Origin: Candidatus Aenigmatarchaeota archaeon
GTDB lineage: Archaea > Aenigmatarchaeota > Aenigmatarchaeia > QMZP01 > QMZT01
DNA: 64,000 bases
Assembly: GCA_043808015.1 (NCBI GenBank)
Contig: JAZDFI010000029.1
Coordinates: 7,003 to 71,002, forward strand
Direction of reading: 5' to 3'
Shown: in pieces, positions 2,682-26,561 of the stretch
Position numbering within the stretch: the first letter of the stretch is position 1
Layout of the letters: the number at the start of each line of letters is the position of its first letter
Notes under the pieces: generated by a model
The model's input: the letters and a program-made list of their open reading frames with translations, nothing else
Databases searched by the model: none
Told to the model about the DNA's origin: nothing
Position numbers and translations under genes: made by a program

Positions 2682-3458
2682 TCAGGCGCGCACGACATCG
2701 AGCATTTTTTTGTGAATTTCGGGGTTGGCTGCCAGCACTCCCATTCTTTTCATTTCTATCGGTTTTCCGTCAGGCGACGTGACTTTCGTGCCTGCTTCCA
2801 TGGCGATGAGCGACGACGCCGCGAAGTCCCATGGGCTGAGGACGTATTCCCAGTAGCCGTCGATACGCCCGCAAGCGACGTAACACATGTCGAGAGCGGC
2901 AGAGCCGTCCCTGCGCACGCCGTGGACATTTCTTGACAGGAAGTCGCCCATCTTTTCGAGCGTCTTGCGCATGATTTCCCCGCGCTCATAATAGAAGCCC
3001 GTCGTTAGAAGCGAGTCTTTTAACTCGACTGCTTTTGAGACGCGTATCCTTTTGCCGTTGAGATACGCTCCGTGGCCGGCGACTGCGTGGAACATTTCGT
3101 CCCTTATCGGATCATAAACCACGCCCAGCGATTGTACTCCATTCCTTACCAGCGCGATGGAAACGCAGAAGAAAGGGTAACCATGCGTGAAATTAGTCGT
3201 GCCGTCAAGCGGGTCGATTATCCACATGTTTTCTTCGTTTTCTATCTTGGTGCCTTCCTCGGCCATTATGCCATGACCGGGGAAACGATGCCTTATCATC
3301 GATGTTATCAGCTTCTCCGAATTCTTGTCGACGTTTGTGACAAAGTCGATTTTCGATTTGAATGCGAGAATCCGCCTGTTACCGGTCTGGCTGAGGATGA
3401 GTTTTCCAGCCTTTCTGGCGGTCTCCTGGGCGAAAACCAGCTCTTTATTTTGTTTCAT
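2682..3458 (-). CDS. suhB: Inositol monophosphatase / fructose-1,6-bisphosphatase family protein
   Basis: WIIDPLDGTTNF metal-binding motif and overall IMPase-fold pattern. Confidence 0.8.
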   Translation of the reverse strand: MKQNKELVFAQETARKAGKLILSQTGNRRILAFKSKIDFVTNVDKNSEKLITSMIRHRFPGHGIMAEEGTKIENEENMWIIDPLDGTTNFTHGYPFFCVSIALVRNGVQSLGVVYDPIRDEMFHAVAGHGAYLNGKRIRVSKAVELKDSLLTTGFYYERGEIMRKTLEKMGDFLSRNVHGVRRDGSAALDMCYVACGRIDGYWEYVLSPWDFAASSLIAMEAGTKVTSPDGKPIEMKRMGVLAANPEIHKKMLDVVRA

Positions 3459-3756
3459 CTTCTATCCACCTGGTGAATTCTTTCGAGCCTCCGATAATCG
3501 GAAGCGCTATAATCTCCGGGTTGGTGTATTGGTGCACGGCTTTGACTTTTTTTATCAGTTCGCGCAGGACGGCTTTCTTCGTCTTCACGACCAGCAGCGC
3601 CTCGTCTGCCGTGTGTATTTTGCCCGTCCACCAGAATTTAGATTTCAGTCCGGGAATTATGTTCACGCAAGCGGCCAGGCGCTCCCTGAGAAGCATGTCC
3701 GCTATGCGCTCGCCGTCTTCGACGCCCGGGCACGTTATCATCACAACAATATACAT
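3445..3756 (-). CDS. cutA: CutA1 divalent-cation tolerance protein
   Basis: About 100 aa, with CPGVEDGERIADMLLRERLAACVNIIPG...YTNPEIIALPI, the CutA signature. Confidence 0.75.
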   Translation of the reverse strand: MYIVVMITCPGVEDGERIADMLLRERLAACVNIIPGLKSKFWWTGKIHTADEALLVVKTKKAVLRELIKKVKAVHQYTNPEIIALPIIGGSKEFTRWIEDETK

Positions 3757-3766
3757 ACAACAACCT

Positions 3767-4447
3767 TCATTCTATGGACGTACCTGCGAAGCTCTTGCAG
3801 TTTATGGCTTTTTTCATGTTCTCCATGTTCCTGCCGTCCAGCAGTATGGCCTTTATCTTCGTCTTTTCGAGCAGCCGTGCAGCGACTGTGTCCATGACGG
3901 TCAGGGGGCCAGCAACGTGCTTCTTGACCTTCACCATGCGGTAAAGGTCCTGGGTTTTTATCTTGCTTATCATCCTGGCGCTTTTATATTTTCTAGGATC
4001 CTTGTCGTATACGCCTTTGACGTCAGTGCCTATTATTATCAGATTCGCCCTGAAGAACTGGGCCGCGGCCACTGCGACGGCGTTGGTCGTCTGGCCAGGC
4101 ACGGTTCCTCCCATTACCACGACCTTGCCCGTCGAAATTCCATGCTCCAGCTCTTCCTTGTTTTTGACGATTTTCGGATATGCGTGCTTCCCCAGCGACG
4201 CCATCACGACCATGGCATTCATGCGCGCGCCCAGAATGCCCATGGTGTCGAGCAGGCTCTCGGAAGGCTTAAGCGTCCGCGCCGAGCGTATGTAGTCCTT
4301 GGTCATCTTGCCGCCGCCGACTACGATGATTAAGGCATTTTTTCTTTTAAGTTCCAGCAGGAATTTTGAAAGCTTTTTGACGTAATTAATGTCCGGCACG
4401 CCCTTCGGGCATATTATCGAGCCGCCTATTTTGAAAACTATGCGCAT
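3767..4447 (-). CDS. pyrH: UMP kinase (amino-acid kinase family)
   Basis: MRIVFKIGGSII N-terminus and about 226 aa length typical of archaeal PyrH. Isopentenyl phosphate kinase is the alternative. Confidence 0.6.
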   Translation of the reverse strand: MRIVFKIGGSIICPKGVPDINYVKKLSKFLLELKRKNALIIVVGGGKMTKDYIRSARTLKPSESLLDTMGILGARMNAMVVMASLGKHAYPKIVKNKEELEHGISTGKVVVMGGTVPGQTTNAVAVAAAQFFRANLIIIGTDVKGVYDKDPRKYKSARMISKIKTQDLYRMVKVKKHVAGPLTVMDTVAARLLEKTKIKAILLDGRNMENMKKAINCKSFAGTSIE

Positions 4448-4516
4448 ACCAACACCTCGCTAATAATATGGTTTCCTGATATTTATTTTTCAAAATCAGC
4501 ACTAAAAGCAAAAGGT

Positions 4517-5041
4517 TTAAGCTTTTCTGAGGCCGCGCATTTTCTTGCCGGACGATGTAAGGCCCTTGAAAACCCTGCCGGCATGCTGCTTCTCGGTGAT
4601 CCACTTTCTCTCGCTGTCGCTCGCTATGACCGGGCTTTCAGGATCGACCAGTATGACTTCGAACCACTCGAACTGGCCGTCTTCTCCGACGAAATAAGAA
4701 TTAAGTATCTCCATGTTGGGGAACTTCCTTGCAGCGCGTTCCTCGCCCATTATCTGGTTGGACTTGCCCGAAGAGAAGAAGCGTCCTCTCTTGCTGGGTC
4801 CGCGGCCGCCCGTGAATTTGGGGCGCTTTCGTTTACCCTTCATGACGCGCACTCTGGCGATGACGAAGCCCTGCTTGGCTTTGTAACCAAGCGTCCTGGC
4901 CCTATCGAGCCTGGTCGGCCCGGACAGTTTGGTGACTACATTCTCGTTTCTCCAGGCAATAATTCTTTCCTTCCACAGGCTGCCCAGATTCTGCCTCGGT
5001 TTCTTCCATAGCTGCTTCATGTTTCTGTTCATACCGACCAC
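4517..5041 (-). CDS. rpl15e: 50S ribosomal protein L15e
   Basis: Basic protein (WKKPRQNLGSLWKERIIAWR...GYVIARVRV...) matching the L15e family. Confidence 0.8.
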   Translation of the reverse strand: MVGMNRNMKQLWKKPRQNLGSLWKERIIAWRNENVVTKLSGPTRLDRARTLGYKAKQGFVIARVRVMKGKRKRPKFTGGRGPSKRGRFFSSGKSNQIMGEERAARKFPNMEILNSYFVGEDGQFEWFEVILVDPESPVIASDSERKWITEKQHAGRVFKGLTSSGKKMRGLRKA

Positions 5042-5136
5042 TGTAGGAATGATTTAGAATGATTAGATATTTAAACATATTTTGGCATGAAAGCTATAAA
5101 AACTTATACGGCCAATTCTATTTAAGAGGTGTAAAT

Positions 5137-5415
5137 ATGCACGCGATGGTAAAAATAATATTGGGACTTGTGCTTGTGCTGGTTGGTCTTGGGCTTTTCG
5201 TTGACTCGGTTTACCCCATAATGGGCGTAAAGGGAACGTTCGGGATAGACTGGCTTAGCAACTTCGTAACCGTGCTCACGGGAGTCATACCGATATTCCT
5301 GATACTCATCGGTCTGTTCATAGTGTGGCTTGAAGCCGATGAAATGAAGACCGCCAAGGAGTTCCAGGAGCCGGTTGAGGAAGTAAAGGAAGATAAGAAG
5401 CGCAAGAAAAAATAA
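5137..5415 (+). CDS. Small membrane protein (two TM helices, Lys-rich tail)
   Basis: ATG at 5137 is preceded by GAGGTG. Two hydrophobic helices. The upstream part of the listed ORF looks non-coding. Confidence 0.45.
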   Translation: MHAMVKIILGLVLVLVGLGLFVDSVYPIMGVKGTFGIDWLSNFVTVLTGVIPIFLILIGLFIVWLEADEMKTAKEFQEPVEEVKEDKKRKKK

Positions 5416-5416
5416 G

Positions 5417-7138
5417 CTACAAATCGGTTCTCTGAACGATGGAATCCTTTATATCTACATTCTTGTCTTTTTTCCTGATTTTTTCCCCTATTTTTGAACG
5501 CTGAACGATCGAATCTATAATGTTTATGGTCTCGCTGACCTCGATTTTCTGTATTTCAGTCGCTAGCGACATGGCTATGACTGTGTATTTGACTATGTCG
5601 GCAATCTTTTCTGATAGATTTTCAAGCTCTTCATCCTTGGATGAGTAGAGTTTGAAGGCGACGTGAACAAGACTATCGTCTTCTCGTAGCACGCAGGTAA
5701 GAAGGTAAGTGTCGCCGTCGCTGGACTCGCCGGAGAAAAGGTATAGCCTTTCATTGTCGAACTCATGCGACGCGACAGCCGCAAAATCCCTGCATTCCTC
5801 AAGGACGTGGCTCGAAACAGTCTTTATGTCCGTCCCTTTTAGTGTGTATCCTTTTATTGTCGACTGCAGGTCCGCCTTCATTTTCACGAACTCGTGCTCG
5901 CTTATTTCTTTCGGATGTATGAAGTTCTGCAGGAATCTTCTGAACTTCTGGGTATAATTGAGCTTGTCCATGTTCTCTTTGCTGGTCTGGCCGTTGCTAG
6001 CGGCTGTACGCGCCGTCTGCAGCGATTCCTCCAATACGAAAGGCTCGATATCCTTGATGAAATTCCTGCCGCGCAGGTCGTGGAAGCTTATCGCGGGCTT
6101 GAGCATCGTTTTGCCCGTGACCATCGGCAGTATCTTGAAAACGAAACCCTTCTCCTCGCCGGGGTTTATCTTTTCTATCTCGTAGCCGCTAACAGGGTCG
6201 ACTTTTATTTCCACCGGGAAATTCATGACCAGGTTCACGTCGCTTATGGGTTGCCTTGAGTTGTTGGCCACGGAAACCACGAAATATGACTTTTTGCCGA
6301 CTTCCAATCGCTCCCTAAGATACGGCCTCACATCGATGTTAGGGATGACGCACATTCTCGGCGGCTCTATCTCGCTTTCCATGCGCTCGCCCCTGGCGTT
6401 TTTCCATTCAACCTTCGAGTAAAACGGCTTCACGTTTTCGGATGACGTGACCATGTAACTGAGCGCTCTGGACTCGCCAGGCTTCATGGAAGCGACGCTT
6501 TCGAGAACGTTCGCCTTTACGCCAAGTATCCTTATATCACTGAGCGTCTCTTTCGTATCGTTTCTTAGTGCAAGCGTTACTTTGACTTTTTCGCCTTCCT
6601 TTACCACGTCGCTCTCGCAGGTATGGCTTATGCTGAGATGCGGGGCGATTCTGGCGATGTCATGTATCCTTTTTTCTATCTCCTCGCTGTATTCGATGTC
6701 GAGTGATTTCCTGTAATTTTTGATTGCCAAGTTGTAGTCGTTCATCTTCTCGGCCGCCTGCCCCATCAGGTTGTAGCACCACTGCACCGCATATAGCGAG
6801 CCTGCGCGTGTGAAATAGTCTATCGCCTTGGTTGCGAAGTTCATGGTGTTGTTGAAGTCATTGAAAGAGAACGAGTAAAACGCAGCGGACTTGTATGCCC
6901 AGCCCGTGTTGAAATCCTTGCCCAGCTTGAGGTTGCACTGCACCTCCTCAAGGCAGAAGTCGACGGCTCGTTTGTCGTTTACCGATTCAGCCAGCCTGGC
7001 GGCCTCCTGATAGACTTCGGCTGCTTCAGCGCACTTGCCCGACTTGGCCATTTTTTCCGCTTTTTTGGCCAGGCTTTCCACTTCTTTCGTCGTTTTTTTC
7101 ACTTCTTTCGCGTTGGCATGGGGCTGTTGCTTGTCCAT
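5417..7138 (-). CDS. Hypothetical 573-aa protein: N-terminal TPR/alpha-solenoid-like region, two Ig-like beta-sandwich modules, C-terminal alpha/beta domain; third gene downstream of the ESCRT-III and Vps4 genes
   Basis: No catalytic motif recognised. Same strand as the Vps4 gene and 38 nt downstream of it. Confidence 0.5.
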   Translation of the reverse strand: MDKQQPHANAKEVKKTTKEVESLAKKAEKMAKSGKCAEAAEVYQEAARLAESVNDKRAVDFCLEEVQCNLKLGKDFNTGWAYKSAAFYSFSFNDFNNTMNFATKAIDYFTRAGSLYAVQWCYNLMGQAAEKMNDYNLAIKNYRKSLDIEYSEEIEKRIHDIARIAPHLSISHTCESDVVKEGEKVKVTLALRNDTKETLSDIRILGVKANVLESVASMKPGESRALSYMVTSSENVKPFYSKVEWKNARGERMESEIEPPRMCVIPNIDVRPYLRERLEVGKKSYFVVSVANNSRQPISDVNLVMNFPVEIKVDPVSGYEIEKINPGEEKGFVFKILPMVTGKTMLKPAISFHDLRGRNFIKDIEPFVLEESLQTARTAASNGQTSKENMDKLNYTQKFRRFLQNFIHPKEISEHEFVKMKADLQSTIKGYTLKGTDIKTVSSHVLEECRDFAAVASHEFDNERLYLFSGESSDGDTYLLTCVLREDDSLVHVAFKLYSSKDEELENLSEKIADIVKYTVIAMSLATEIQKIEVSETINIIDSIVQRSKIGEKIRKKDKNVDIKDSIVQRTDL

Positions 7139-7176
7139 AAGAAAAATTAAACGCTAAACTTTATAATGCCAGCGTC

Positions 7177-8277
7177 TCAGACGCTGATGTTTTCCTTCCA
7201 GTCATCGTATCTCTTTATCAGTTTCTGGCTCACGGTCTTCTTTATTTTTGAAAGCGCGTATGTAAAATCATCCTTAGTGAGCGGCCTGTATTTAATGGCG
7301 TATTTCTCCACCTGTGTCGCCGTCATATCTTCGAGATTCGGGTTCTGCTCGCGTATCATGAACATTATGGCCTCGCGGCATATGCTGGCTATGTCACGGC
7401 CGGAATAACCCTCGCTCATTTCTGCCAGTTCGTCGATGGTTATGCCTGACAGCGACGAGCCTTTAACGTGTATTTCGAATATCTTCCTTCTCGAATCGAC
7501 GTCCGGCAGCGGCACGTATATCTTTCTCTGGAACCTCGATATCATCGCGTCATCGAGATCCCATGGCCTGTTCGTGGCGGCCATTATTATGACCTTTTCG
7601 TCCTTCTTGGTCGAGAAGCCGTCTATCTCCACGAGCAGCTGGGATATGACCCTTCTCGTCGCTTCGTGGACGCCGGCTTCCCTGGTGATCATTATCGAGT
7701 CGAACTCGTCCATGAAAATAAGCGAGGGCTGGTTTTTTCTTGCCTTTTCGAAAAGCGCGCCTATGATCTTCTCAGATTCGCCATAATATTTGGAGAGGAG
7801 AGTCGATGTCTTCGCCTCGAAGAAGTTCGCCTTCAGCGTGTTGCTGGCCGCCTTGGCTAGCAGCGTTTTTCCGGTTCCCGGAGGCCCGTAAAGCAGTATC
7901 GTGCGCGGCACCTCCACAAACGCCGGCTTGCCAGCAATCATGGGCAGGATTATCGACTCCCTTACCTCGCGCTTCGCTTCCTTTAGACCGCCTATGTCTT
8001 CCCACTTCGTCGTGGGCTTTTCGTAAACTATCATTTTGTCTATTGGCTGTTCGGACTTCTTTCGAGCGCTACTGACGCCCTCGAACTGGTCAGCAGAATG
8101 GAACAGTGATGCAGCTTCGCCTCTGGGGGATATGTAAGCCAGGCGCCTGTAAATAGATGCGGCGACCTTGTAGTGTGTTGTCGCCTGCTTTGATTTACCG
8201 TCCGCTTCAAGCTTCCTGGCGGTGTCCAGTTCGTGCTGGAGCTGCTGTTTCAAAAGCGACTCTCTCAGTTCGCCCAT
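7177..8277 (-). CDS. cdvC: Vps4-like AAA ATPase (MIT domain plus AAA); CdvC-like
   Basis: N-terminal MIT-like three-helix region. Walker A LLYGPPGTGKT, Walker B IFMDEFD. The SRFQRKIYVPLPD motif is typical of the meiotic-clade AAA proteins, Vps4 included. Length of 366 aa is like archaeal CdvC. Confidence 0.8.
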   Translation of the reverse strand: MGELRESLLKQQLQHELDTARKLEADGKSKQATTHYKVAASIYRRLAYISPRGEAASLFHSADQFEGVSSARKKSEQPIDKMIVYEKPTTKWEDIGGLKEAKREVRESIILPMIAGKPAFVEVPRTILLYGPPGTGKTLLAKAASNTLKANFFEAKTSTLLSKYYGESEKIIGALFEKARKNQPSLIFMDEFDSIMITREAGVHEATRRVISQLLVEIDGFSTKKDEKVIIMAATNRPWDLDDAMISRFQRKIYVPLPDVDSRRKIFEIHVKGSSLSGITIDELAEMSEGYSGRDIASICREAIMFMIREQNPNLEDMTATQVEKYAIKYRPLTKDDFTYALSKIKKTVSQKLIKRYDDWKENISV

Positions 8278-8296
8278 AAAACCACCAGAAAAAAAA

Positions 8297-8917
8297 TCAC
8301 TCTGTGTCCTCTTCCTTCTTTTCCTCTGTTATCGACTTCGCTTTCTCGCCGGCCATGCGCATCGCCGTCTCTTCATCCACCTTTTCCAGGTCGTTTATGG
8401 CGTGCATGAGCTCCTGCGATTCCTCGTCGACGAGCATCTGCTGCTTGCCGAAGACCCGTTCCAGCTTTTCCTTCACCTTATCCAGACGGCCTTCTTCCAA
8501 CGCTTCTCGTACATCGGTATCGGTAAGCACTTCGCTCAGCCTGTCCATGTCCGTGTCGAGAATTTCCTTCGCTATCGACGAAATTTTCTCGCTCTTCTCG
8601 CGCTGTTTCATGGCCTGGACAAGCAGTAGAAGCTGCAATTCGCGGAGAAAATGAGATGCTTCAATCTGCTTCGTGCGAGACTCGAGACTAAACGCCTTGA
8701 TTTTCTGCACGTTAAGCATCTTGAGTGTATTGGGCTGGCCCTTCGACTCGAGCATGAGCTTCTGGATTTTTTCGGCAATACCCCTGAGGTCGTCGGAAAT
8801 CCTCTCTACTTCCTTTTCTATTTTGAGGCGTTCCTTGAGCAAATCATTGTCTTTTATGGAAAATATGTCCTTGCCGAATTTCGATTTGATGAATTTCTTG
8901 AAATCCACCGCTCTCAC
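8297..8917 (-). CDS. cdvB: ESCRT-III / Snf7-like protein (CdvB-like)
   Basis: 206-aa all-helical, charge-segregated coiled-coil protein with an acidic C-terminus. It sits 19 nt upstream of the Vps4 gene on the same strand. Confidence 0.55.
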   Translation of the reverse strand: MRAVDFKKFIKSKFGKDIFSIKDNDLLKERLKIEKEVERISDDLRGIAEKIQKLMLESKGQPNTLKMLNVQKIKAFSLESRTKQIEASHFLRELQLLLLVQAMKQREKSEKISSIAKEILDTDMDRLSEVLTDTDVREALEEGRLDKVKEKLERVFGKQQMLVDEESQELMHAINDLEKVDEETAMRMAGEKAKSITEEKKEEDTE

Positions 8918-8953
8918 CTTGATATTTATTTTGACTGTTTTAAATATAAAGGT

Positions 8954-11900
8954 ATGAAGCGCGGTTTTCTGCTATCGCTCGACGCAATTGTGGCGATAAC
9001 TTTGTTGCTGTCGGTATCGACTTTTTTGGCGGGAATTTCGTTCACTTATTCGACGCCCGAGTTACGCTATCAGCGCTATTACTATGCCGGCAAGGATATC
9101 GCCGCATTGTTTCAGGAAGCCAGAATCAGCTCGGTATCGGACGTCGTCAACCTGACCAAATACAACCTTACACAAGAAGAGATGAACAGGACCATTCTCG
9201 ACGTTATCGGCTCTTTCTGGGCCGGCGGCAACATGAGTGTCGCTAGTAATCTGACAAGGGACATTTTCAGCGAAGTTTTAGGAAACACTGGTCTCAACTA
9301 CGAGGTTTCTTTCAACGACGAAACGATATATGCCAGCGACGACTCTTATTCGGATTTTGTGGCCAGGCTGTCGACTGTTGTATCAGGTTATGAAAAAACG
9401 AAACCTGTCAACGGATATCTTGCGAAGGTTTACGTAACGAAAGTCTCGAAAACCAATTCGGAGTTCATATATTTCGGCGGCTACGAGGGCGACGGTAACA
9501 TAACAAAGGTCATCACGCTTCCTGTCGACGTCAACGTGACCGGCGCGTATCTTGAAATGAACGTCGGCAACAATTTTTTGCTTTACATCAATGGCCAGGC
9601 TGCAGGAACGTACGTCAAGAGCGCCGTAAATTTTTCGGCGGACAACTGGACCATATGTTCAAAAACGAATCCGTCATACTGCTCATACTTTGCGGCCGGC
9701 CAGAACATTATACAGCTGAACTTCACAACAAACCAGAGCACATACGTGGGCGGCGGCTATCTTAAGGTCACTTACAAAACCTCCGAGCTTACGGAATACA
9801 CGACCAGCGGCAATGCCAGTGATTACTATGAATTTCCCGGCATACGCGGCATTATCAACCTTTATTCGTCTTTCTACGTGCCGGGCACGCTTAAAAACAT
9901 GAGTGCAAGATTGCATTACAACAACAACCTCAGCCTCAACAACCAGGGCGTGCCAGTCTATTTTGTTATTGGTTCAAAAGAAATATACAGGAGCAACGCC
10001 ACAGGGGAGCATGTAATCGATATCCCTGAAAAAAACATATCCGATGCGTTCGGAGGAAAAGCGAATCTCACGGAAAAGCTCAGCAACGCGACCATACCCA
10101 TACGCTTCGGCACGGATACCTTCGCCTTTACAAGCGGTGAGGGAACGAGCGACTCTATTCTAATAACAGACATTTCAGGCAGTATGGGCGGCTCCACGGC
10201 CTCATGTGACGTGCAGACTACCGCATGCGAGCACACGGACTGCAACACGGCCAGCGGCTGCCAGAACTACAGGATAGACGTGGCAAAGGACGTGGACAAC
10301 GATTTCGTGGATAACATCCTCAACTACACCGGCAACATGCTCGGCCTTATCAGCTACTCGACCACCGTATATGACAGCCACCCGCTGAGCAATGACAGCT
10401 CTTCACTCCATGCGGAAATAGACGGTTACACACCAACAGATTATACCTGCATATCATGCGGCATCCTCATAGCGACGGACATGCTCCTCGATGCGGCGGT
10501 AATAAATGAAACCATAAAACCGAATTCCACGTGGCTGTATAATGTCAGCTTCCCGTCAAGCGAGCCGCCCGTCGTGAACGGAAGCGAGTGGACATGGCAA
10601 AATTACAGCGATGATGGCTGGTCGTCCGGACAGTCAATACTTGGTTTCGAAAGTCCATCATATTTCCCCAACATAAACACGAACATAGGCAACAACGGCG
10701 GCAACTATTATTTCAGGAAGCACTTCAATTTCACCAAGGCGATGATAGACTCGGCGGACCTTTACGTGCTCTCAGACAACGCTGCCGAAATATACCTCAA
10801 TGGCCATCTTGTTTACAACGATACGTCCGAGCACAACGCCAGATACTGGAACAACTACTACGATGTCCTTGATGAAAATTTCGAAAGCTACTATGCCAGT
10901 GGCGACAACAGGCTTTATTCTACCGAAATAAACCGCACGCCTGGCTACTGGATTGTAGACGGAACGCCAGACGCTGACAAGGAAGTGTTTATCATGGCCA
11001 ACTACGCGGGTTACCCGGCTCATAAAGGGACGGACGTCATGGTCTTCAGGGACATGGACGCATACGGCTCGGTGGAAACGCATCTCAATCTCTCCGGAAA
11101 GGCGAACCTCACGCTTTCATACTGGTGGTCGCTGGGCGACGATGAACCGGACAGCGGGGAATATTCCAATATGCGCATATGGGACGGCAGCTGGCACACC
11201 GTGAAAACTTACAATGCGAGTCACGTTTACGGCGACTATCACAAGGAAACGATAGACCTGAACGCATATAACATGGTAAACAACTTCACTGTAAGATTCG
11301 GCTCAAGGTCGAGCAGCGATACTGAGAGGTTTTATGTCGACGATGTCCGTATCGCTGGTTCGGCAACGCACATAGAAACATCATATTTCAATGACGGAGA
11401 AAACGTCGTTGCCGTGAGACTCAGGAACAACGACGCTGTCGCGGCGAAGTTCGACGCGGCGCTCAACATAACAATGAAGCGATACAAGGCGATGCTGGTG
11501 ATGAGCGACGGGCTCGCCAACAGACCCCTGGGCGTCAATGCGACCGAAGACGCCGTGAGCAAGGCCTGCGATGCGAGAAGGCGCGACATCCAGACGTACA
11601 CGGTCGCCTTCGGCACACAGGCAGACGGAGAGACTCTCAAAAAAATAGCGTGCTGGAACTGCACCACAGGCTCATGGATTCCTAACTGTGACAGGTTCTA
11701 TAACAGCACTGATGCCGAGGAGCTGCAGCAAATATACAGGTCAATCGCAAGAGATATTGCTAACGCCAGCTACGCCGGACAGCTTTTCAATTTCACGGGT
11801 AACGTATCCATGAACAACATCCTATACACGGACTCTTACATATATTTTGATTACACGCCGGTTGTCAGGACCCCCGAATACGGTGAGATAACCCTTAATT

Positions 11901-12697
11901 TCGAATCCCCGCGCCTGGGCGCATCCACAGGCGATATTATGACGACCGATAACGAGACAGGAACAAAGGAGGGCTGGTTCTTCATACCGGGTGACACTGA
12001 AGTCTCGACGGAAGTGCTTGATTCCAAAATAACCTCTTATTCCTCGTACTATTGGACGGACAGGCTTTGGGTCAACTCGTCCAGCACGCCTAATCAAAAC
12101 TGGACGCGCGTATACTGGCTCGCAAATTACTCAAGCGACTACGAAAAACTGGGAGACCCGTACATAGTGCAGATACCGCCCAACATTCTTACAGCGAACG
12201 GCAACAATTCGTTTAAAATAGGCACCGGGCTTCGTCCGACTCCGCTGTCCGGAGGCAAAGGCGCCTCGCCGGACGACAGGGTGATTTACACGCTGGGCAT
12301 AAAAGGCATAAGCCTCACCCAATACAGCGATGTTTTTGCCAAGGCTAAAGGTTCGACTGTCACGATATATTACGATGCGAACGGCGATAACGTCGCGGAC
12401 AGCTCTTCTGTGGTGGAAATCGGACCGGACCCTGACGACAATTTCGACCCCATGAACGACTCGATAGATAATGGTTTTATGAAGCTCATTGACAGGATGA
12501 ATTTCATGAGCGATGTTAATTCAGGCGTGGTCGACTTAAATTACACGGCATCGGGACCAAGCGGCACCGGCGACGGCTCTTCAGGCAACCCGGTCGACCT
12601 GGAAATAACAGAAGACGTGAATTTCAATTCTGATTTCATATCCCAGATATCATCCATGTGGGGTCCTGCGATAATGGAGGTAAAAATATGGGGATGA
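8954..12697 (+). CDS. Giant (1247 aa) class III signal peptide (type IV pilin-like) surface protein with a vWA domain interrupted by a PA14-like insertion; putative glycosylated adhesin
   Basis: True start is the ATG at 8954: MKRGFLLSLDAIVAITLLLSV has the archaeal prepilin pattern of [KR]G followed by a hydrophobic helix with Ser and an acidic residue. The ORF extension upstream of 8954 overlaps cdvB antisense and looks spurious. vWA MIDAS motif DISGSMGG sits near 10169 and the MLVMSDGLAN...YTVAFG part about 440 aa later. Between them is a PA14-like stretch GNYYFRKHFNF...LYVLSDNAAEIYLNGHLVYND. There are dozens of N-x-S/T sequons. Confidence 0.7.
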   Translation: MKRGFLLSLDAIVAITLLLSVSTFLAGISFTYSTPELRYQRYYYAGKDIAALFQEARISSVSDVVNLTKYNLTQEEMNRTILDVIGSFWAGGNMSVASNLTRDIFSEVLGNTGLNYEVSFNDETIYASDDSYSDFVARLSTVVSGYEKTKPVNGYLAKVYVTKVSKTNSEFIYFGGYEGDGNITKVITLPVDVNVTGAYLEMNVGNNFLLYINGQAAGTYVKSAVNFSADNWTICSKTNPSYCSYFAAGQNIIQLNFTTNQSTYVGGGYLKVTYKTSELTEYTTSGNASDYYEFPGIRGIINLYSSFYVPGTLKNMSARLHYNNNLSLNNQGVPVYFVIGSKEIYRSNATGEHVIDIPEKNISDAFGGKANLTEKLSNATIPIRFGTDTFAFTSGEGTSDSILITDISGSMGGSTASCDVQTTACEHTDCNTASGCQNYRIDVAKDVDNDFVDNILNYTGNMLGLISYSTTVYDSHPLSNDSSSLHAEIDGYTPTDYTCISCGILIATDMLLDAAVINETIKPNSTWLYNVSFPSSEPPVVNGSEWTWQNYSDDGWSSGQSILGFESPSYFPNINTNIGNNGGNYYFRKHFNFTKAMIDSADLYVLSDNAAEIYLNGHLVYNDTSEHNARYWNNYYDVLDENFESYYASGDNRLYSTEINRTPGYWIVDGTPDADKEVFIMANYAGYPAHKGTDVMVFRDMDAYGSVETHLNLSGKANLTLSYWWSLGDDEPDSGEYSNMRIWDGSWHTVKTYNASHVYGDYHKETIDLNAYNMVNNFTVRFGSRSSSDTERFYVDDVRIAGSATHIETSYFNDGENVVAVRLRNNDAVAAKFDAALNITMKRYKAMLVMSDGLANRPLGVNATEDAVSKACDARRRDIQTYTVAFGTQADGETLKKIACWNCTTGSWIPNCDRFYNSTDAEELQQIYRSIARDIANASYAGQLFNFTGNVSMNNILYTDSYIYFDYTPVVRTPEYGEITLNFESPRLGASTGDIMTTDNETGTKEGWFFIPGDTEVSTEVLDSKITSYSSYYWTDRLWVNSSSTPNQNWTRVYWLANYSSDYEKLGDPYIVQIPPNILTANGNNSFKIGTGLRPTPLSGGKGASPDDRVIYTLGIKGISLTQYSDVFAKAKGSTVTIYYDANGDNVADSSSVVEIGPDPDDNFDPMNDSIDNGFMKLIDRMNFMSDVNSGVVDLNYTASGPSGTGDGSSGNPVDLEITEDVNFNSDFISQISSMWGPAIMEVKIWG

Positions 12698-13380
12698 GTA
12701 AAGCGAAAGTTTTGTTTGTGTCTGCTGTTGCGTTTTCAATTTTGATGTTGTTTATGAGTCATGCTACCGCTCAGGAGGATGAAGAAAAAATAGTGTGCCT
12801 GGTTTACTTCACAAGCAACGGCTGCGGGGACGAGTGCAGGTTCACTGATACTTTCATGAGCGGCCTGATGCGAGAATACGCAGGAACTCTAGTGTCGATA
12901 ATTTATTTCGTTGATGATAGCGCACAAAACAGCGTCGTTTTCAATGCGTACAGGTCGACATATAATCTGCCGGCCAACGTCCCCATAGTTTTGTTCGGCA
13001 AAGACGATTATCTGCAAGGGAGGAGTGACATATACGAGGGTACTGAAAAAAAAATATTCGATTTTCTGCTGGCCAACGGCACCAACTGCCCGCTGGACTC
13101 GGGCTTTGTTGCACCGAGCCAGCTCTCGCCTGGAAGCGTCCCCGGCGCGCAAATCCTGAGAATGCCCCCAGACAAGGAAGCTGTAAAAAATGACAGCATA
13201 GGGACGATTTCCGAAGATGATGATGTCATGAATGGCAATGACAGCGGACCCGGAGATATCCTGGCGCTGAACGAACCCATGAAAGAAAGCGTCTTCTCCC
13301 TTGTTATTATAGGAATTGTTCTGATAGTGGTGGCCGCCATCATTATTTATGTGTGGACTAAAACGCAGGAAAGTTTATGA
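12688..13380 (+). CDS. Secreted, C-terminally membrane-anchored protein (signal peptide, Cys-rich, Asn-sequons)
   Basis: GGAGGT lies 11 nt upstream of the ATG at 12688. The ATG overlaps the stop codon of the adhesin gene. N-terminal signal peptide and C-terminal TM helix plus short tail. Confidence 0.5.
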   Translation: MGMSKAKVLFVSAVAFSILMLFMSHATAQEDEEKIVCLVYFTSNGCGDECRFTDTFMSGLMREYAGTLVSIIYFVDDSAQNSVVFNAYRSTYNLPANVPIVLFGKDDYLQGRSDIYEGTEKKIFDFLLANGTNCPLDSGFVAPSQLSPGSVPGAQILRMPPDKEAVKNDSIGTISEDDDVMNGNDSGPGDILALNEPMKESVFSLVIIGIVLIVVAAIIIYVWTKTQESL

Positions 13381-23591: not shown

Positions 23592-25313
23592 CTAGAATGC
23601 GGATTTTCTGCCCCTCTGCTGGCTGTAAAGCCTTTCTATGCGCCCTACATCGTCTGCTTCTCCAGGCGACTTGTCCGTTCGAATCCTCAGCAATCGCGGG
23701 AAGCGCAGGGCGAACCCGGAAGAATAAGTGGGTGACTTCTGTATTTCTTCGTAGGCGATTTCTACCACGATTTTGGGCTCCACCTGGACTACATTACCCT
23801 TCTTCGATGTTATGTGCGTTTTAAGCTGTTCTGTAAGCTCATCGAAAGTCACGTCTTCATCGACGGACTTTTTCTCCTTTATACCCGTGCCCATCATGCC
23901 GCATTCGGCAAACCCCTCGTCACGCCTGCACGATAGTATGAACGTCCCGAACCAGCTGGTGCGCTTTCCTGTGCCCCATTCCGCGCCCGTGATGACCAGG
24001 TCAAGCGTCTCCATTATCGGTTTTACCTTGAGCCAGTAGCCCACGCGCCTGCCCGGCTGGTAGCTCGCGTCGAGATTCTTCACCATCACGCCTTCCTGCT
24101 TCGCCTTGAGCGCGCGCTCGTAAAATTTCTGCGCTTCGCCTGGGTCTTTGGTAACGAGCTTCTCGGCCAGCTGGAACTTACCGGGAATTACATTGATCAC
24201 GGATTCGAGCAGCTTCTTTCGCTTTTCAAGCGTCTCGGAAAAAAGATCCCTGCCGTCCAGATAAACGATATCGAAAAGGTTTACCTGTATAGGGATTGTG
24301 CGGGCCATCTGTTCTATGTCGTATTTTCTCTTTATCCGCTGGGAAAGCTGCTGGAATGGCAGCGCTTCGCCTTTCGCGTCTATGCCCAGCATTTCGCCCT
24401 CTATTATGCATTCCTTTGCCTTTACGCCTTTCAAAACCAGCTCTTTCAGGTCCGGAAACTGCCGCGTCACGTCTTCGAGCCTTCTGGTATAAAACCAGAG
24501 CTTGTCGCCTTTTTTATGGATGCACACGCGGGCGCCGTCGTATTTGAATTCTAAAATAGGTTTTTCGAATGTTTCCAGCGCCTCCTTGAGATCCGGCGCT
24601 TTTTCGGCCAGCAGGACCTGGTATGGCTTGCCAACCTCGACTGTCACCTTCTCGAGTCCGCGGAGGCCGTGCTCTTTGGCGATTTTTGCTATTTCGGCAT
24701 AATCAGGCCGCAAGAACCATGCCCATTCTATGGCGCTTATTATTTTTTTCTTCTCTTCCTGGTCCTTGAAATCGAAAAACGCCGAGGCAATCGAATCGCG
24801 CAGCACTCCTTCCGCGACTCCGACACGCATCTGCTCAAGCACCGTGCGCACTATGTATTTCGCTTCCTTTGGCTGCGCGCTGGAAATGAGTTCTTTTATG
24901 AACGATATCTTGGAATCCTGGGAGCCTTTACCTTCTACCGATGCCAGTTTCTGGAGGTTTTCGAAAACTTTCGTCACGTCAAGCTCGCGGTTCACCAGGT
25001 TTTTCTGTTTTTTGACCGACAGCATTTTTTCCACGGCGAGGCCGAGGTCGCCTGTTTTTCTGAATTCATTCTCCACTTCGCTTTGTGAAAACCCGGCGGA
25101 TGATGCAATCACCTTCATCATCAGCTTATCGGCAACACCCATCTCCTTTTCGGAATAAGGGGGAAAAACTTTACCCTGCATCAGCAGCACGACTTTGTCG
25201 AGTGTTTTGGCATCCGCTTCCCTGAAGAAAGCTGCAATCTTCTCTATTTTGCTCAGGCGCGACGGAGTCTGCTCCAGATATTCGTAAAGCCCGACGAGTT
25301 CAGAATATTTCAT
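23592..25313 (-). CDS. lig: ATP-dependent DNA ligase
   Basis: KYDGARV adenylation motif, followed by EGEMLG and LFDIVYLDG motifs. Length of 573 aa. Confidence 0.9.
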   Translation of the reverse strand: MKYSELVGLYEYLEQTPSRLSKIEKIAAFFREADAKTLDKVVLLMQGKVFPPYSEKEMGVADKLMMKVIASSAGFSQSEVENEFRKTGDLGLAVEKMLSVKKQKNLVNRELDVTKVFENLQKLASVEGKGSQDSKISFIKELISSAQPKEAKYIVRTVLEQMRVGVAEGVLRDSIASAFFDFKDQEEKKKIISAIEWAWFLRPDYAEIAKIAKEHGLRGLEKVTVEVGKPYQVLLAEKAPDLKEALETFEKPILEFKYDGARVCIHKKGDKLWFYTRRLEDVTRQFPDLKELVLKGVKAKECIIEGEMLGIDAKGEALPFQQLSQRIKRKYDIEQMARTIPIQVNLFDIVYLDGRDLFSETLEKRKKLLESVINVIPGKFQLAEKLVTKDPGEAQKFYERALKAKQEGVMVKNLDASYQPGRRVGYWLKVKPIMETLDLVITGAEWGTGKRTSWFGTFILSCRRDEGFAECGMMGTGIKEKKSVDEDVTFDELTEQLKTHITSKKGNVVQVEPKIVVEIAYEEIQKSPTYSSGFALRFPRLLRIRTDKSPGEADDVGRIERLYSQQRGRKSAF

Positions 25314-25367
25314 GATAGAATATTGTTTTATGTTTTAATTTAATTAAAACACGGCCAACTAATGTAT

Positions 25368-26561
25368 ATGAAAGGGCAGTTTTATTCTGCAATCGCAATA
25401 CTCATCGCCATTCCCATCGTCGTATTCGTCACCCTTTATGTGGCCACCCAGGGCGGCGAGGATGGCATCTACCAGGCGATAGTCGCGGACCAGATACACC
25501 AAGTGGAATCGGGAATAGAAAACGATTTCGGCAAGGCCGTCGTGACGTCGGGAAAACGCGCCATGATAGCCGGCGACGACTATGTCGTCATGAGCGGCAA
25601 AGCGCTTTCCGACGCCGCGGGCGGCGTGAAAGAACTGATGCAGTACGGCACGATAGAAGGCAACGAAAGCATACTCATGCACAATAATACCATATCCAAC
25701 TGGACCAGCAAAATACTGGCCATACCGTCAAATTTCGACATCAACATAACTTACTGGGGCCTCGACGTCGCCGGTTCAGGTGCATTTCACATCAAAGCTT
25801 CTGCGAGAATAAACGTTTCTGTCGCTGATGAGGTCGGCATCGCGCGCATAGACAAAATAGGAGAGTATTATGAAGCTCTTATTCCGATTGAGGGGGCCGA
25901 AGATCCCGTATTCACCCTGAAAACAGGCGGCCTTGTCACCAGGACGGTCAAGCTTTCACCATATCCTTACAGGGCAAAAAAACTGGTGATTGGCGGCCTT
26001 AACTCGAGCGGCAACTGCACCGGCAACTTCACAATGAACAAGAGCGACTGCTCGTCAAAAATACTGGTTGCGGAAAACACGAGCGGTGTCGCTTTATCAT
26101 GCTTTTCCGGTTTCATAATAGAAACATCCATGAACCTCAGCTCCGATTCGGACTGTTACGTCACGGGCAACGGCAACGCAGTTGAATCTATAACACAAGC
26201 CCTCGCGGAAACGAATTACAATAAAATATACATAGACGGTCCGACAAAGGCGGCATGGCACCTGCCCATACGCGATGATATAGACGAGAAATATTATTTC
26301 AGCGGTGGTGGTCCGTTGTTTCTGAAGCGACTGGAAGGCAATCTCAACCAAACGCCCGATGGTCTGGAAACTTTTGTGAACCTGCCGGAACTGGAAAGCA
26401 ACCAGATTCCGATAAAGCAGAACGTCATCTCCGTGGATTATATATATTTTGGGGGACAAGACTATATTGGGTATCCGGTGAGGGGTTTGCAGGGCTGGTT
26501 CAGGCTTAACAGGACTTTTACGGACAGGTATAATCTCACCGAGTTGTGCAATGGTTGTTGA
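25368..26561 (+). CDS. Secreted pilin-like Cys-rich glycoprotein (class III-like signal peptide)
   Basis: MKGQFYSAIAILIAIPIVVFV N-terminus, KGQ then hydrophobic helix. Many N-x-S/T sequons and Cys pairs. Confidence 0.5.
   Translation: MKGQFYSAIAILIAIPIVVFVTLYVATQGGEDGIYQAIVADQIHQVESGIENDFGKAVVTSGKRAMIAGDDYVVMSGKALSDAAGGVKELMQYGTIEGNESILMHNNTISNWTSKILAIPSNFDINITYWGLDVAGSGAFHIKASARINVSVADEVGIARIDKIGEYYEALIPIEGAEDPVFTLKTGGLVTRTVKLSPYPYRAKKLVIGGLNSSGNCTGNFTMNKSDCSSKILVAENTSGVALSCFSGFIIETSMNLSSDSDCYVTGNGNAVESITQALAETNYNKIYIDGPTKAAWHLPIRDDIDEKYYFSGGGPLFLKRLEGNLNQTPDGLETFVNLPELESNQIPIKQNVISVDYIYFGGQDYIGYPVRGLQGWFRLNRTFTDRYNLTELCNGC

Follow-up and report, generated by a model that had tools for sequence, protein, structure and literature searches.

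In the 64,000-nucleotide stretch of DNA from Candidatus Aenigmatarchaeota archaeon analyzed here (contig JAZDFI010000029.1, positions 7,003 to 71,002; hereafter the window), three consecutive minus-strand genes encode a protein of 203 amino acids (aa), here called ESCRT-III-like, an AAA+ ATPase of 366 aa and an adaptor-like protein of 573 aa, and the first of these genes is divergently oriented to a plus-strand gene for a surface protein (adhesin) of 1247 aa (Table 1). An earlier annotation made from the nucleotide sequence without database searches (the sequence-only reading) had located the three minus-strand genes and the gaps of 19 nt and 38 nt between them, in agreement with the table of open reading frames (ORFs). 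The 203-aa and the 573-aa proteins are 100% identical to the proteins V1648_03955 and V1648_03945 of a Candidatus Aenigmatarchaeota metagenome-assembled genome (MAG), and the three genes form a conserved cluster.

Table 1. Features of the gene cluster and of its divergent neighbor, with positions counted from the first nucleotide of the window.
Feature	Positions	Strand	Basis or remark
ESCRT-III-like gene, 203 aa	8297..8908	-	GTG at 8908; alternative GTG at 8917 gives 206 aa (8297..8917)
Vps4-like AAA+ ATPase gene, 366 aa	7177..8277	-	ORF table and Pfam
N-terminal domain of the ATPase, ~70 aa, three helices, MIT-like	8068..8277	-	hhalign and profile match
Adaptor-like protein gene, 573 aa	5417..7138	-	ORF table
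TPR/SNAP-like/MIT-like alpha-solenoid, residues 1-165 of the 573-aa protein	6644..7138	-	Pfam
First immunoglobulin-like beta-sandwich, residues ~168-274 of the 573-aa protein	6317..6637	-	Strands of the AlphaFold2 model
Adaptin/COPI appendage-like module, residues ~284-530 of the 573-aa protein	5549..6289	-	Foldseek and topology of the AlphaFold2 model
Low-confidence C-terminal tail with tandem motif, 573-aa protein	5420..5527	-	Invariant columns; model confidence (pLDDT) <50
Divergent spacer between the ESCRT-III-like and the adhesin gene	8909..8953		Sequence; two TATA-like boxes, GGTGA motif
Surface protein (adhesin) gene, 1247 aa, ATG 8954	8954..12697	+	ORF table
19-nt gap, ESCRT-III-like gene to ATPase gene	8278..8296	-	T8 run, then GGTGG
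38-nt gap, ATPase gene to 573-aa gene	7139..7176	-	TATA-like ATTATAAA; palindrome overlapping its edge

The context in which the family of the 203-aa protein is found is the strongest evidence for its ESCRT-III-like identity. A scan of the GTDB species-representative genomes returned 52 species-level loci (51 locus labels read Aenigmatarchaeota, Aenigmarchaeota or archaeon, L030 is labeled Micrarchaeota and L017 "uncultured bacterium"), across which the family is 46-98% identical (tblastn), and a Vps4-like gene lies directly downstream of the ESCRT-III-like gene in 30 of the 46 assessable Aenigmatarchaeota loci. Moreover, very distant family members with 18-26% identity adjoin Vps4-like ATPases outside the Aenigmatarchaeota, so that at least four distantly related archaeal lineages show this neighborhood: it is found in L005-L007 (MAG contigs labeled Methanosarcinales, with relatives labeled Methanophagales), in L061, where the two genes are immediate neighbors, and in L060, which encodes two paralogues of the family, a PP2C phosphatase and two ATPases, one of them with a Pfam-positive MIT domain. 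According to Makarova et al. (2024, mBio, PMC10936438), archaeal ESCRT loci as a rule have their ESCRT-III gene upstream of Vps4, and these authors invoked the same adjacency for the Halo_adaptin gene that is weakly PspA-like. Because the 203-aa family recurs beside Vps4-like ATPases, it is probably a highly diverged member of the ESCRT-III superfamily, its homology being likely rather than proven.

The architecture and the composition of the protein are consistent with this assignment. In the AlphaFold2 (AF2) model, helices are predicted for residues 6-14 (alpha0), 23-57 (alpha1), 63-108 (alpha2/3), 165-177 and 182-197, positions close to those of the helices in Snf7, and the hairpin as well as the two C-terminal helices are modeled confidently. 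The size of the protein fits ESCRT-III. Its N-terminal half is basic (net charge +8, pI 9.8) and its C-terminal half acidic (net charge -13, pI 4.6), and the same asymmetry is present in 13 further family members as well as in Snf7, CHMP4B, CHMP3 and CHMP2A. Furthermore, the N-terminal FGK motif resembles the LFGK/LFGR of the CHMP proteins, the KGQ at the hairpin tip (residues 59-61) is positioned as the KKGQ of CHMP3 and the TKGN of Snf7, and the C-terminal helix DLEKVDEETA is conserved, with D176, L177, E178, V180, D181, T184 and A185 being invariant.

A profile-profile comparison (hhalign) of 60 family members with six ESCRT-III sequences, which were validated with Pfam at 60-198 bits, gave a probability of 19.6% (P 2.4e-4) in global and of 7.3% (P 4.8e-3) in local mode, with an alignment that is collinear over 199 columns and that has the hairpin tip in register. 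Runs with a single profile reversed, which alone served as controls (a run with both reversed preserves any alignment), gave P values of 0.12-0.54. Architecture, composition, this weak collinear profile-profile signal and the recurrent adjacency to Vps4 together argue for the assignment to ESCRT-III.

Some further members of the family differ in their surroundings or in their composition. In L060 (2054-6429) the genes are ordered Vps4-like ATPase, paralogues of 198 aa and 194 aa, PP2C phosphatase and the second ATPase with the Pfam-positive MIT domain, and the second paralogue (194 aa) has a hydrophobic N-terminus. A sub-clade of nine loci in which Vps4 is not adjacent (L024, L026-L028, L031, L033-L035, L038) shares another conserved block downstream of the ESCRT-III-like gene, consisting in most loci of a small ORF (86-129 aa, on either strand), then of a minus-strand gene of 778-826 aa and, except in L028 and L038, of a plus-strand gene of 302-324 aa. 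In the metagenomic protein P0146 (339 aa), residues 1-122 of the family are joined to a phosphoglycerate-mutase-type metalloenzyme domain, which is probably due to a chimeric assembly or a frameshift rather than to a real fusion.

The 366-aa protein had been called Vps4-like, and the Pfam analysis bears this out: AAA (142.4 bits), AAA_lid_3 (45.3 bits) and Vps4_C (32.0 bits, cut-off 21.3) all score above their cut-offs, and these domain matches place the protein with the AAA+ enzymes of Vps4/katanin type that have a single cassette. The NCBIfam model for CdvC (NF041006) scores 233.8 bits, under its equivalog cut-off of 650. The N-termini of 30 orthologues show a conserved three-helix pattern, and a profile of 16 orthologous N-termini matches the MIT domain of Sulfolobus Vps4 (2v6y, E 0.04) and CdvC (4lcb, E 0.37) in register; the same profile also matches TPR proteins. 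Comparison of these 16 N-termini with three MIT domains by hhalign gave a probability of 42.6% (P 2.5e-4), the reversed controls P values of 0.11-0.13. The ATPase is thus Vps4-like with a probable MIT-like N-terminal domain.

For the 573-aa protein the sequence-only reading had proposed an alpha-solenoid, two immunoglobulin (Ig)-like modules and an alpha/beta domain, an architecture that is confirmed and refined by Pfam, AF2 and Foldseek. The region of residues 1-165 matches TPR_2 with 28.3 bits, above the cut-off of 27, whereas SNAP (24.9 bits, cut-off 25) and MIT (20.8 bits, cut-off 30) stay below theirs, the near-match to alpha-SNAP (PF14938) spanning residues 18-151; on these scores the N-terminus is best called a generic TPR-like solenoid. 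In the AF2 model, which covers residues 160-573 (predicted local distance difference test, pLDDT, 77.4), the strands of a first Ig sandwich (~168-274), for which Pfam gives weak DUF11/CARDB-type matches, are followed by a second Ig sandwich (~284-370), a beta-alpha-beta4-alpha (TBP-like) platform up to residue ~530 and a long helix. Foldseek places COPI or AP-2 appendages in each of the first ten ranks for the model (E 1.8e-10 to 9.5e-8; alignments of 262-290 columns; targets of 233-824 residues, nine of the ten of 233-271), and two structure-comparison methods both put appendages at the top. Pfam found no appendage-family match in the 573-aa protein, the sole one being Alpha_adaptinC2 with an E value of 0.17 in a neighbor at L061.

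The tail of the 573-aa protein (residues 538-573, pLDDT <50) carries the tandem motif INIIDSIVQRS ... IKDSIVQRT. Hidden Markov models (HMMs) of the second Ig and the C-terminal domains have matches in L006 (three proteins) and in L005 (one protein), with E 1e-5 and 5e-34 to 6e-28, and in these proteins the appendage-like module is joined to three different partners, namely an MIT-like helical head, a membrane protein and an FGE-sulfatase domain. The tandem motif, in the form NIIDS[IV]VQR[ST] ... [DG]S[IV]VQR[ST], follows the module in both phyla, the second being represented by the ANME-type (anaerobic methanotrophic archaea) loci L005-L007. Module and motif together look like a portable targeting module. 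Because the short motif is invariant across phyla within a low-confidence tail, it is suggested to bind a partner common to these systems, candidates being the N-domain of the Vps4-like ATPase and the ESCRT-III-like protein. The proteins with module and DSVVQR[ST] motif lie at 11319-13301 (-), 4949-6682 (+) and 2866-4788 (+) in L006 and at 3530-6082 (+) in L005; in the membrane-anchored and the helical-head proteins of L006 the module ends in a Zn ribbon.

The idea that the 573-aa gene is conserved beside Vps4 holds within one sub-clade and not elsewhere: of the 52 loci, 10 have it directly after Vps4, and a TPR-only version (167-182 aa), which keeps the solenoid part alone, takes this place after Vps4 in four more (L011, L012, L014, L018) and in L004. 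All 24 homologues of the 573-aa protein, the named ones being from Aenigmatarchaeota, share their contigs with the ESCRT-III-like gene. No conserved third gene was found in the more distant Aenigmatarchaeota loci; candidates for such a gene were rejected, as the genes downstream of Vps4 differ (nucleotidyltransferase/HEPN, GNAT, CARDB protein). In one of these loci (L059, 9728-10752, +) a nucleotidyltransferase/HEPN pair, which is toxin-antitoxin-like, lies directly downstream of Vps4. On its other side the 573-aa gene is convergent with a gene for a 118-aa membrane protein (5059-5415, +), the ends of both being one base apart, and this small membrane gene (TM118) holds the same position in all relatives with a 573-aa or TPR-only gene. 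A second ORF of 573 aa in the window (23592-25313, -) was considered as a paralogue and dismissed: it shows no similarity, appears by eye to encode an ATP-dependent DNA ligase, and its equal length is coincidental.

The divergent neighbor of the cluster, the 1247-aa surface protein, has a pilin-like N-terminus (MKRGFLLSLDAIVAITLLL; MKRGFLLSLDAIVAI...), as judged by eye and without HMM support, many N-x-S/T sequons, and a von Willebrand factor A (vWA) domain with a DISGS motif and a weak Pfam match to VWA_2. Its start at ATG 8954 is backed by the 1247-aa gene call in L004. A start at 8651, which would give 1348 aa by including 101 open codons that run antisense to the ESCRT-III-like gene, was rejected, since homologues and gene calls begin at MKRGF. 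The adjacency of the cluster to a large divergent surface protein, pointed out in the sequence-only reading, proved to be a conserved pairing: of the 48 assessable Aenigmatarchaeota loci, 34 encode a protein that retains the first ~150-570 residues of the adhesin and whose gene is divergently oriented to the ESCRT-III-like gene. It is kept even in the sub-clade without adjacent Vps4; its conservation thus reaches further than that of the surrounding synteny, which does not hold for the spacing. At the distant loci outside the Aenigmatarchaeota (L005-L007, L060, L061) there is no such surface-protein neighbor, and therefore a link to the adhesin, if functional at all, would be lineage-specific. 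Elsewhere in the window, a 399-aa protein (25362-26561, +) likewise begins in pilin-like fashion (MYMKGQFYSAIAILIAIPIV) and is rich in N-x-S/T sequons; its gene is divergent, with a 48-bp gap, from the ligase-like 573-aa gene (23592-25313, -).

The spacer between the cluster and the adhesin is AT-rich and has the sequence that had been quoted for it, whereas its boundary had to be revised. The start at 8917 with a spacer of 36 bp had been assumed; nearly all homologues and the NCBI call (203 aa) start at M/V-DFKKF, three codons after GTG 8917, the codon matching GTG 8908 is ATG in relatives, and GTG 8917 falls within a Shine-Dalgarno-like GGTGA (8914-8918) located 5 nt before GTG 8908. The true start is therefore most likely GTG 8908 and the start-to-start spacer 45 bp. 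Nor is the spacer exceptional, as had been supposed: the divergent gaps in the window, taken from a crude gene set that covers 91% of it, measure 3, 26, 26, 45, 48, 48, 61 and 80 bp, with three more of ~360-390 bp, and since most of them lie between 3 and 80 bp, a divergent spacer of 45 bp is ordinary for this compact genome. Two AT-rich TATA-like boxes, GATATTTATTTTGAC (8921-8935) and TTTTAAATATAAA (8938-8950), lie in the spacer and are nearly invariant in close relatives, where the spacer measures 42-63 bp, against 72-208 bp in relatives further removed. Measured from where transcription of the opposite-facing gene is expected to start, each box lies ~26 nt upstream. As these positions fit archaeal TATA boxes, the spacer may hold two back-to-back promoters, the initiation complexes of which would overlap.

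Within the cluster, the proposed organization as one operon is plausible for the first two genes and uncertain for the third. A T8 run (8289-8296) follows the stop codon of the ESCRT-III-like gene and is itself followed by GGTGG (8282-8286) ahead of the Vps4 ATG. Oligo-T tracts can terminate archaeal transcription. The run is a putative partial terminator, which might lower the expression of Vps4 relative to that of the ESCRT-III-like gene, and GGTGG a putative ribosome-binding site. Upstream of the 573-aa gene, the TATA-like ATTATAAA (7160-7167) lies ~25 nt before the ATG, and a palindrome with a 7-bp stem (7170-7186) spans the Vps4 stop codon. Because these two elements precede it, the third gene may have its own promoter, which would fit its variable presence.

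As a synthesis, the cluster is interpreted with moderate confidence as a minimal, strongly diverged ESCRT-like membrane-remodeling and sorting module of Aenigmatarchaeota. The basic N-terminal half of the 203-aa protein, comprising the FGK-containing alpha0 and the alpha1-alpha2 hairpin, would bind the membrane and polymerize, while the acidic C-terminal half would fold back and present the conserved C-terminal helix. The Vps4-type ATPase, a presumed member of the meiotic clade, would dock on the polymer via its MIT-like N-domain and disassemble or remodel it. The 573-aa protein would be an accessory adaptor, whose TPR/MIT-like head could bind the ESCRT-III-like protein's tail, whose adaptin/COPI appendage-like module of Ig domain and platform could act as a protein-interaction hub and whose tandem DS[IV]VQR[ST] tail could be a short linear motif for the partner that all these systems have in common. 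The cellular role might be vesicle or protein sorting or membrane repair and remodeling, possibly linked to the neighboring adhesin; the suggestion of a role in vesicle or cell-contact biology, made earlier on, is permitted by the evidence and is speculation. A more specific version, which we consider decidedly unlikely as a whole, takes the genes as an unrecognized fast-evolving ESCRT-III branch, present in Aenigmatarchaeota and in some uncultured archaea besides, with a Vps4-like ATPase and an adaptin-ear adaptor, which is coupled to the adhesin and acts at the site of host contact rather than in division, with the tandem DS[IV]VQR[ST] tail as a new targeting motif. Such a machine could bud vesicles or nanotubes, or seal or sever cytoplasmic bridges in episymbionts, and the tail would bring diverse proteins to it.

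Several results weigh against the interpretation as an ESCRT-like module, and most of them concern the 203-aa protein. No Snf7, PspA or CdvB HMM of Pfam or NCBIfam matched it (E<=1 in Pfam), nor did any match the 39 relatives and 10 distant relatives that were scanned, and phmmer and profile (hmmsearch) searches of the PDB gave no relevant match; the label Snf7-like, which the sequence-only reading had attached to the protein in its 206-aa form, did not survive this profile check. What these searches in Pfam, NCBIfam and the PDB returned was noise only (GapR, RAQPRD, UPF0335), while six eukaryotic ESCRT-III sequences and PspA, used as positive controls, score 60-198 bits. A HMMER profile search of 1.84 billion representative proteins found nothing that connects the family to ESCRT-III among its 26 clusters (representatives at 50% identity; with a single-protein query there were 252 at 90% identity), and an alignment of the most distant members used as query found the ANME-type subfamily and no Snf7-annotated protein among the 120 of 195 matches listed. 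In addition, residues 110-162 of the AF2 model are below pLDDT 50. For the ATPase, the model of the Cdc48 subfamily (D2) scores 243 bits on the same region, about equal to CdvC, and a search against the PDB cannot tell Vps4 and Cdc48 apart, since two matches are added up in double-cassette proteins; no Pfam MIT match (E<=10) was found in residues 1-75. Finally, Vps4 is not adjacent in 16 of the 46 assessable loci, and the loci with a 573-aa or TPR-only gene all fall into one sub-clade, in which the ESCRT-III-like protein shows at least 68% identity.

Taken together with the low hhalign probability of 7-20%, the failure of all HMM-level Snf7/ESCRT-III tests is what would be expected if the 203-aa protein were an unrelated coiled-coil hairpin that a meiotic-clade AAA+ unfoldase has as its substrate, adaptor or regulator, and resembled ESCRT-III by convergence. 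The same small-profile test, however, also missed the accepted relationship between ESCRT-III and PspA, so that its power is low and its outcome weak in both directions. An unrelated hairpin would moreover have to combine by coincidence the size, the helix order, the charge asymmetry, the FGK in alpha0 and the in-register KGQ tip, to give a full-length collinear alignment that beats the reversed controls, to occupy the slot immediately upstream of Vps4, which is the canonical ESCRT-III position, and to have been duplicated into paralogues in L060; we therefore regard it as unlikely. The assumption that the module serves cytokinesis in the manner of CdvB/CdvC, and not sorting or vesicle formation, draws on the conservation of the 203-aa family across the Aenigmatarchaeota, as for an essential function, and on the repeated evolution of ESCRT-based division in archaea (PMC7619361). 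It appears very unlikely in view of the lack of a CdvA or PRC-barrel partner in the operon, the absence of Vps4 from the neighborhood in a whole sub-clade, the adaptin-appendage partners, which point to sorting-type systems (Makarova et al., 2024), and the statement that DPANN archaea divide with FtsZ (review PMC7617429); no tubulin signature was found within the 64-kb window. An anti-virus defense system around an IetA- or TRIP13-type AAA+ ATPase was rejected as extremely improbable: the ATPase does match PADLOC IetA at 138 bits and NCBIfam IteA at 130 bits (under the cut-off of 510), but these matches reflect the generic AAA cassette, noise of 16.7 bits is all that the adhesin and the two remaining proteins give against defense families, and an IetS-like protease is not present. 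The genes are also found at a single locus, phylum-wide and highly conserved rather than patchy, and no copies were found on viral contigs.

A separate question is whether the back-to-back layout with the adhesin reflects anything other than genome compaction and inherited synteny, without shared regulation or function. This explanation has close to an even chance of being correct: divergent spacers in the window normally measure 3-80 bp, only the closest clade has a spacer of 42-63 bp, with 72-208 bp elsewhere, and the distant homologues in other phyla lack the surface-protein neighbor. On the other hand, loss of the adjacent Vps4 in one sub-clade has left the pairing intact, while the other flanks (L15e, the small membrane protein TM118, the 573-aa gene) change.

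If the interpretation as an ESCRT-like module is correct, the presence of a Vps4-like/ESCRT-III-like/adaptin-ear cluster in a whole DPANN phylum would widen the known reach of ESCRT-type systems and would support the proposal that the building blocks Vps4, ESCRT-III and adaptin appendage predate the archaeal radiation. It would also reveal a gap in detection, as an entire ESCRT-III-like family is missed by profile HMMs. Testable hypotheses follow for an interaction between MIT-like domain and tail, for a new tandem linear motif and for membrane remodeling linked to the attachment apparatus of an obligate episymbiont. Should the 203-aa protein not be an ESCRT-III protein, the cluster is still a conserved, uncharacterized system around a Vps4-type ATPase.

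ESCRT proteins and ESCRT-III homologues were stated to be absent from DPANN archaea (reviews PMC10117752, PMC7619361). Makarova et al. (2024) list Vps4 in three DPANN genomes, and a term search of their text and of the table rows covered showed no Aenigmatarchaeota entry and no ESCRT-III of the DPANN group. Among the systems described in that study, those closest to the module are two of Euryarchaeota, Meth_adaptin and Halo_adaptin; it is less like the CdvABC division machine. In the Meth_adaptin locus of Methanosalsum zhilinae the order is ESCRT-III, Vps4, a coiled-coil and winged-helix (wH) protein and an appendage protein, and the adaptin appendage fold defines arCOG15284 in these loci (Makarova et al., 2024). 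The Meth_adaptin and the Aenigmatarchaeota systems have in common the succession of ESCRT-III, Vps4 and a protein with an appendage (Ig domain and TBP-like platform) on one strand, with an AP-2/COPI-like appendage as signature, the likeness to arCOG15284 being one of fold and published description; moreover, where ANME/Methanosarcinales-type loci carry the same ESCRT-III-like family, they also encode Zn-ribbon/Ig proteins with a homologous module. The Aenigmatarchaeota system differs in that its 203-aa family has no Snf7 match, that no SPFH, GOLD, ProX or coiled-coil and wH genes were recognized (by Pfam in the operon proteins and by the annotation of the syntenic L004), that its appendage protein also has a fused TPR/MIT-like head and ends in a tandem DS[IV]VQR[ST] tail, and that the cluster resides in a DPANN host and is paired with a pilin-like vWA surface protein.

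With the Halo_adaptin system of Haloquadratum (Makarova et al., 2024) it shares a Vps4-like ATPase without recognizable canonical MIT domain, a derived ESCRT-III-like gene preceding the ATPase, which in the Halo system was likewise detected weakly (HHpred 33% to PspA), and accompanying Ig "adaptin-like" proteins. However, the Halo ATPase carries a VAT-N double-psi barrel instead of the short helical MIT-like bundle, and for the adaptin-like beta-propellers, wH proteins and CetZ of the Halo system no counterparts were recognized here, no search having been aimed at them.

The CdvABC system of Sulfolobales and Thaumarchaeota is similar in having an ESCRT-III-type gene directly upstream of a Vps4-type ATPase and in the archaeal-style N-terminal three-helix domain of this ATPase. 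It differs by its CdvA (PRC barrel, coiled coil and E3B): the observation of the sequence-only reading that no CdvA is adjacent stands, as there is no PRC or CdvA match in the three cluster proteins or the adhesin and none is annotated in the syntenic L004, the other flanks in the window being only partly scanned. Further differences are the lack of a wH domain on the 203-aa protein (no Pfam domain, all-helical AF2 model), the score of the ATPase under the CdvC cut-off (233.8 versus 650 bits) and the reported use of FtsZ by DPANN (PMC7617429). At L001 a PRC-barrel gene is located 1.2 kb away (L001 / L030 1625-1912, -). PRC barrels occur in CdvA as well as in the archaeal division proteins CdpB.

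The ears of eukaryotic AP-2 alpha/beta2, AP-4 beta and COPI beta/gamma have the same succession of an Ig beta-sandwich and a beta-alpha-beta4-alpha platform as the 573-aa protein, but sequence identity is 9-14% and is accompanied by the lack of a Pfam appendage match mentioned above; in addition, the 573-aa protein has a short TPR-like head instead of a HEAT-repeat trunk and an extra Ig domain. Compared by its description, the thaumarchaeal arCOG08707 (Makarova et al., 2024) is likewise a lineage-specific helical hairpin next to Vps4 with no detectable sequence similarity, whereas the Thaumarchaea also keep canonical CdvB genes. Distinctive of the cluster described here, in comparison with the euryarchaeal adaptin systems, are the ESCRT-III-like family that is invisible to Snf7 HMMs, the adaptor combining TPR-like head, appendage and motif, the DPANN host and the conserved pilin-like adhesin as neighbor.

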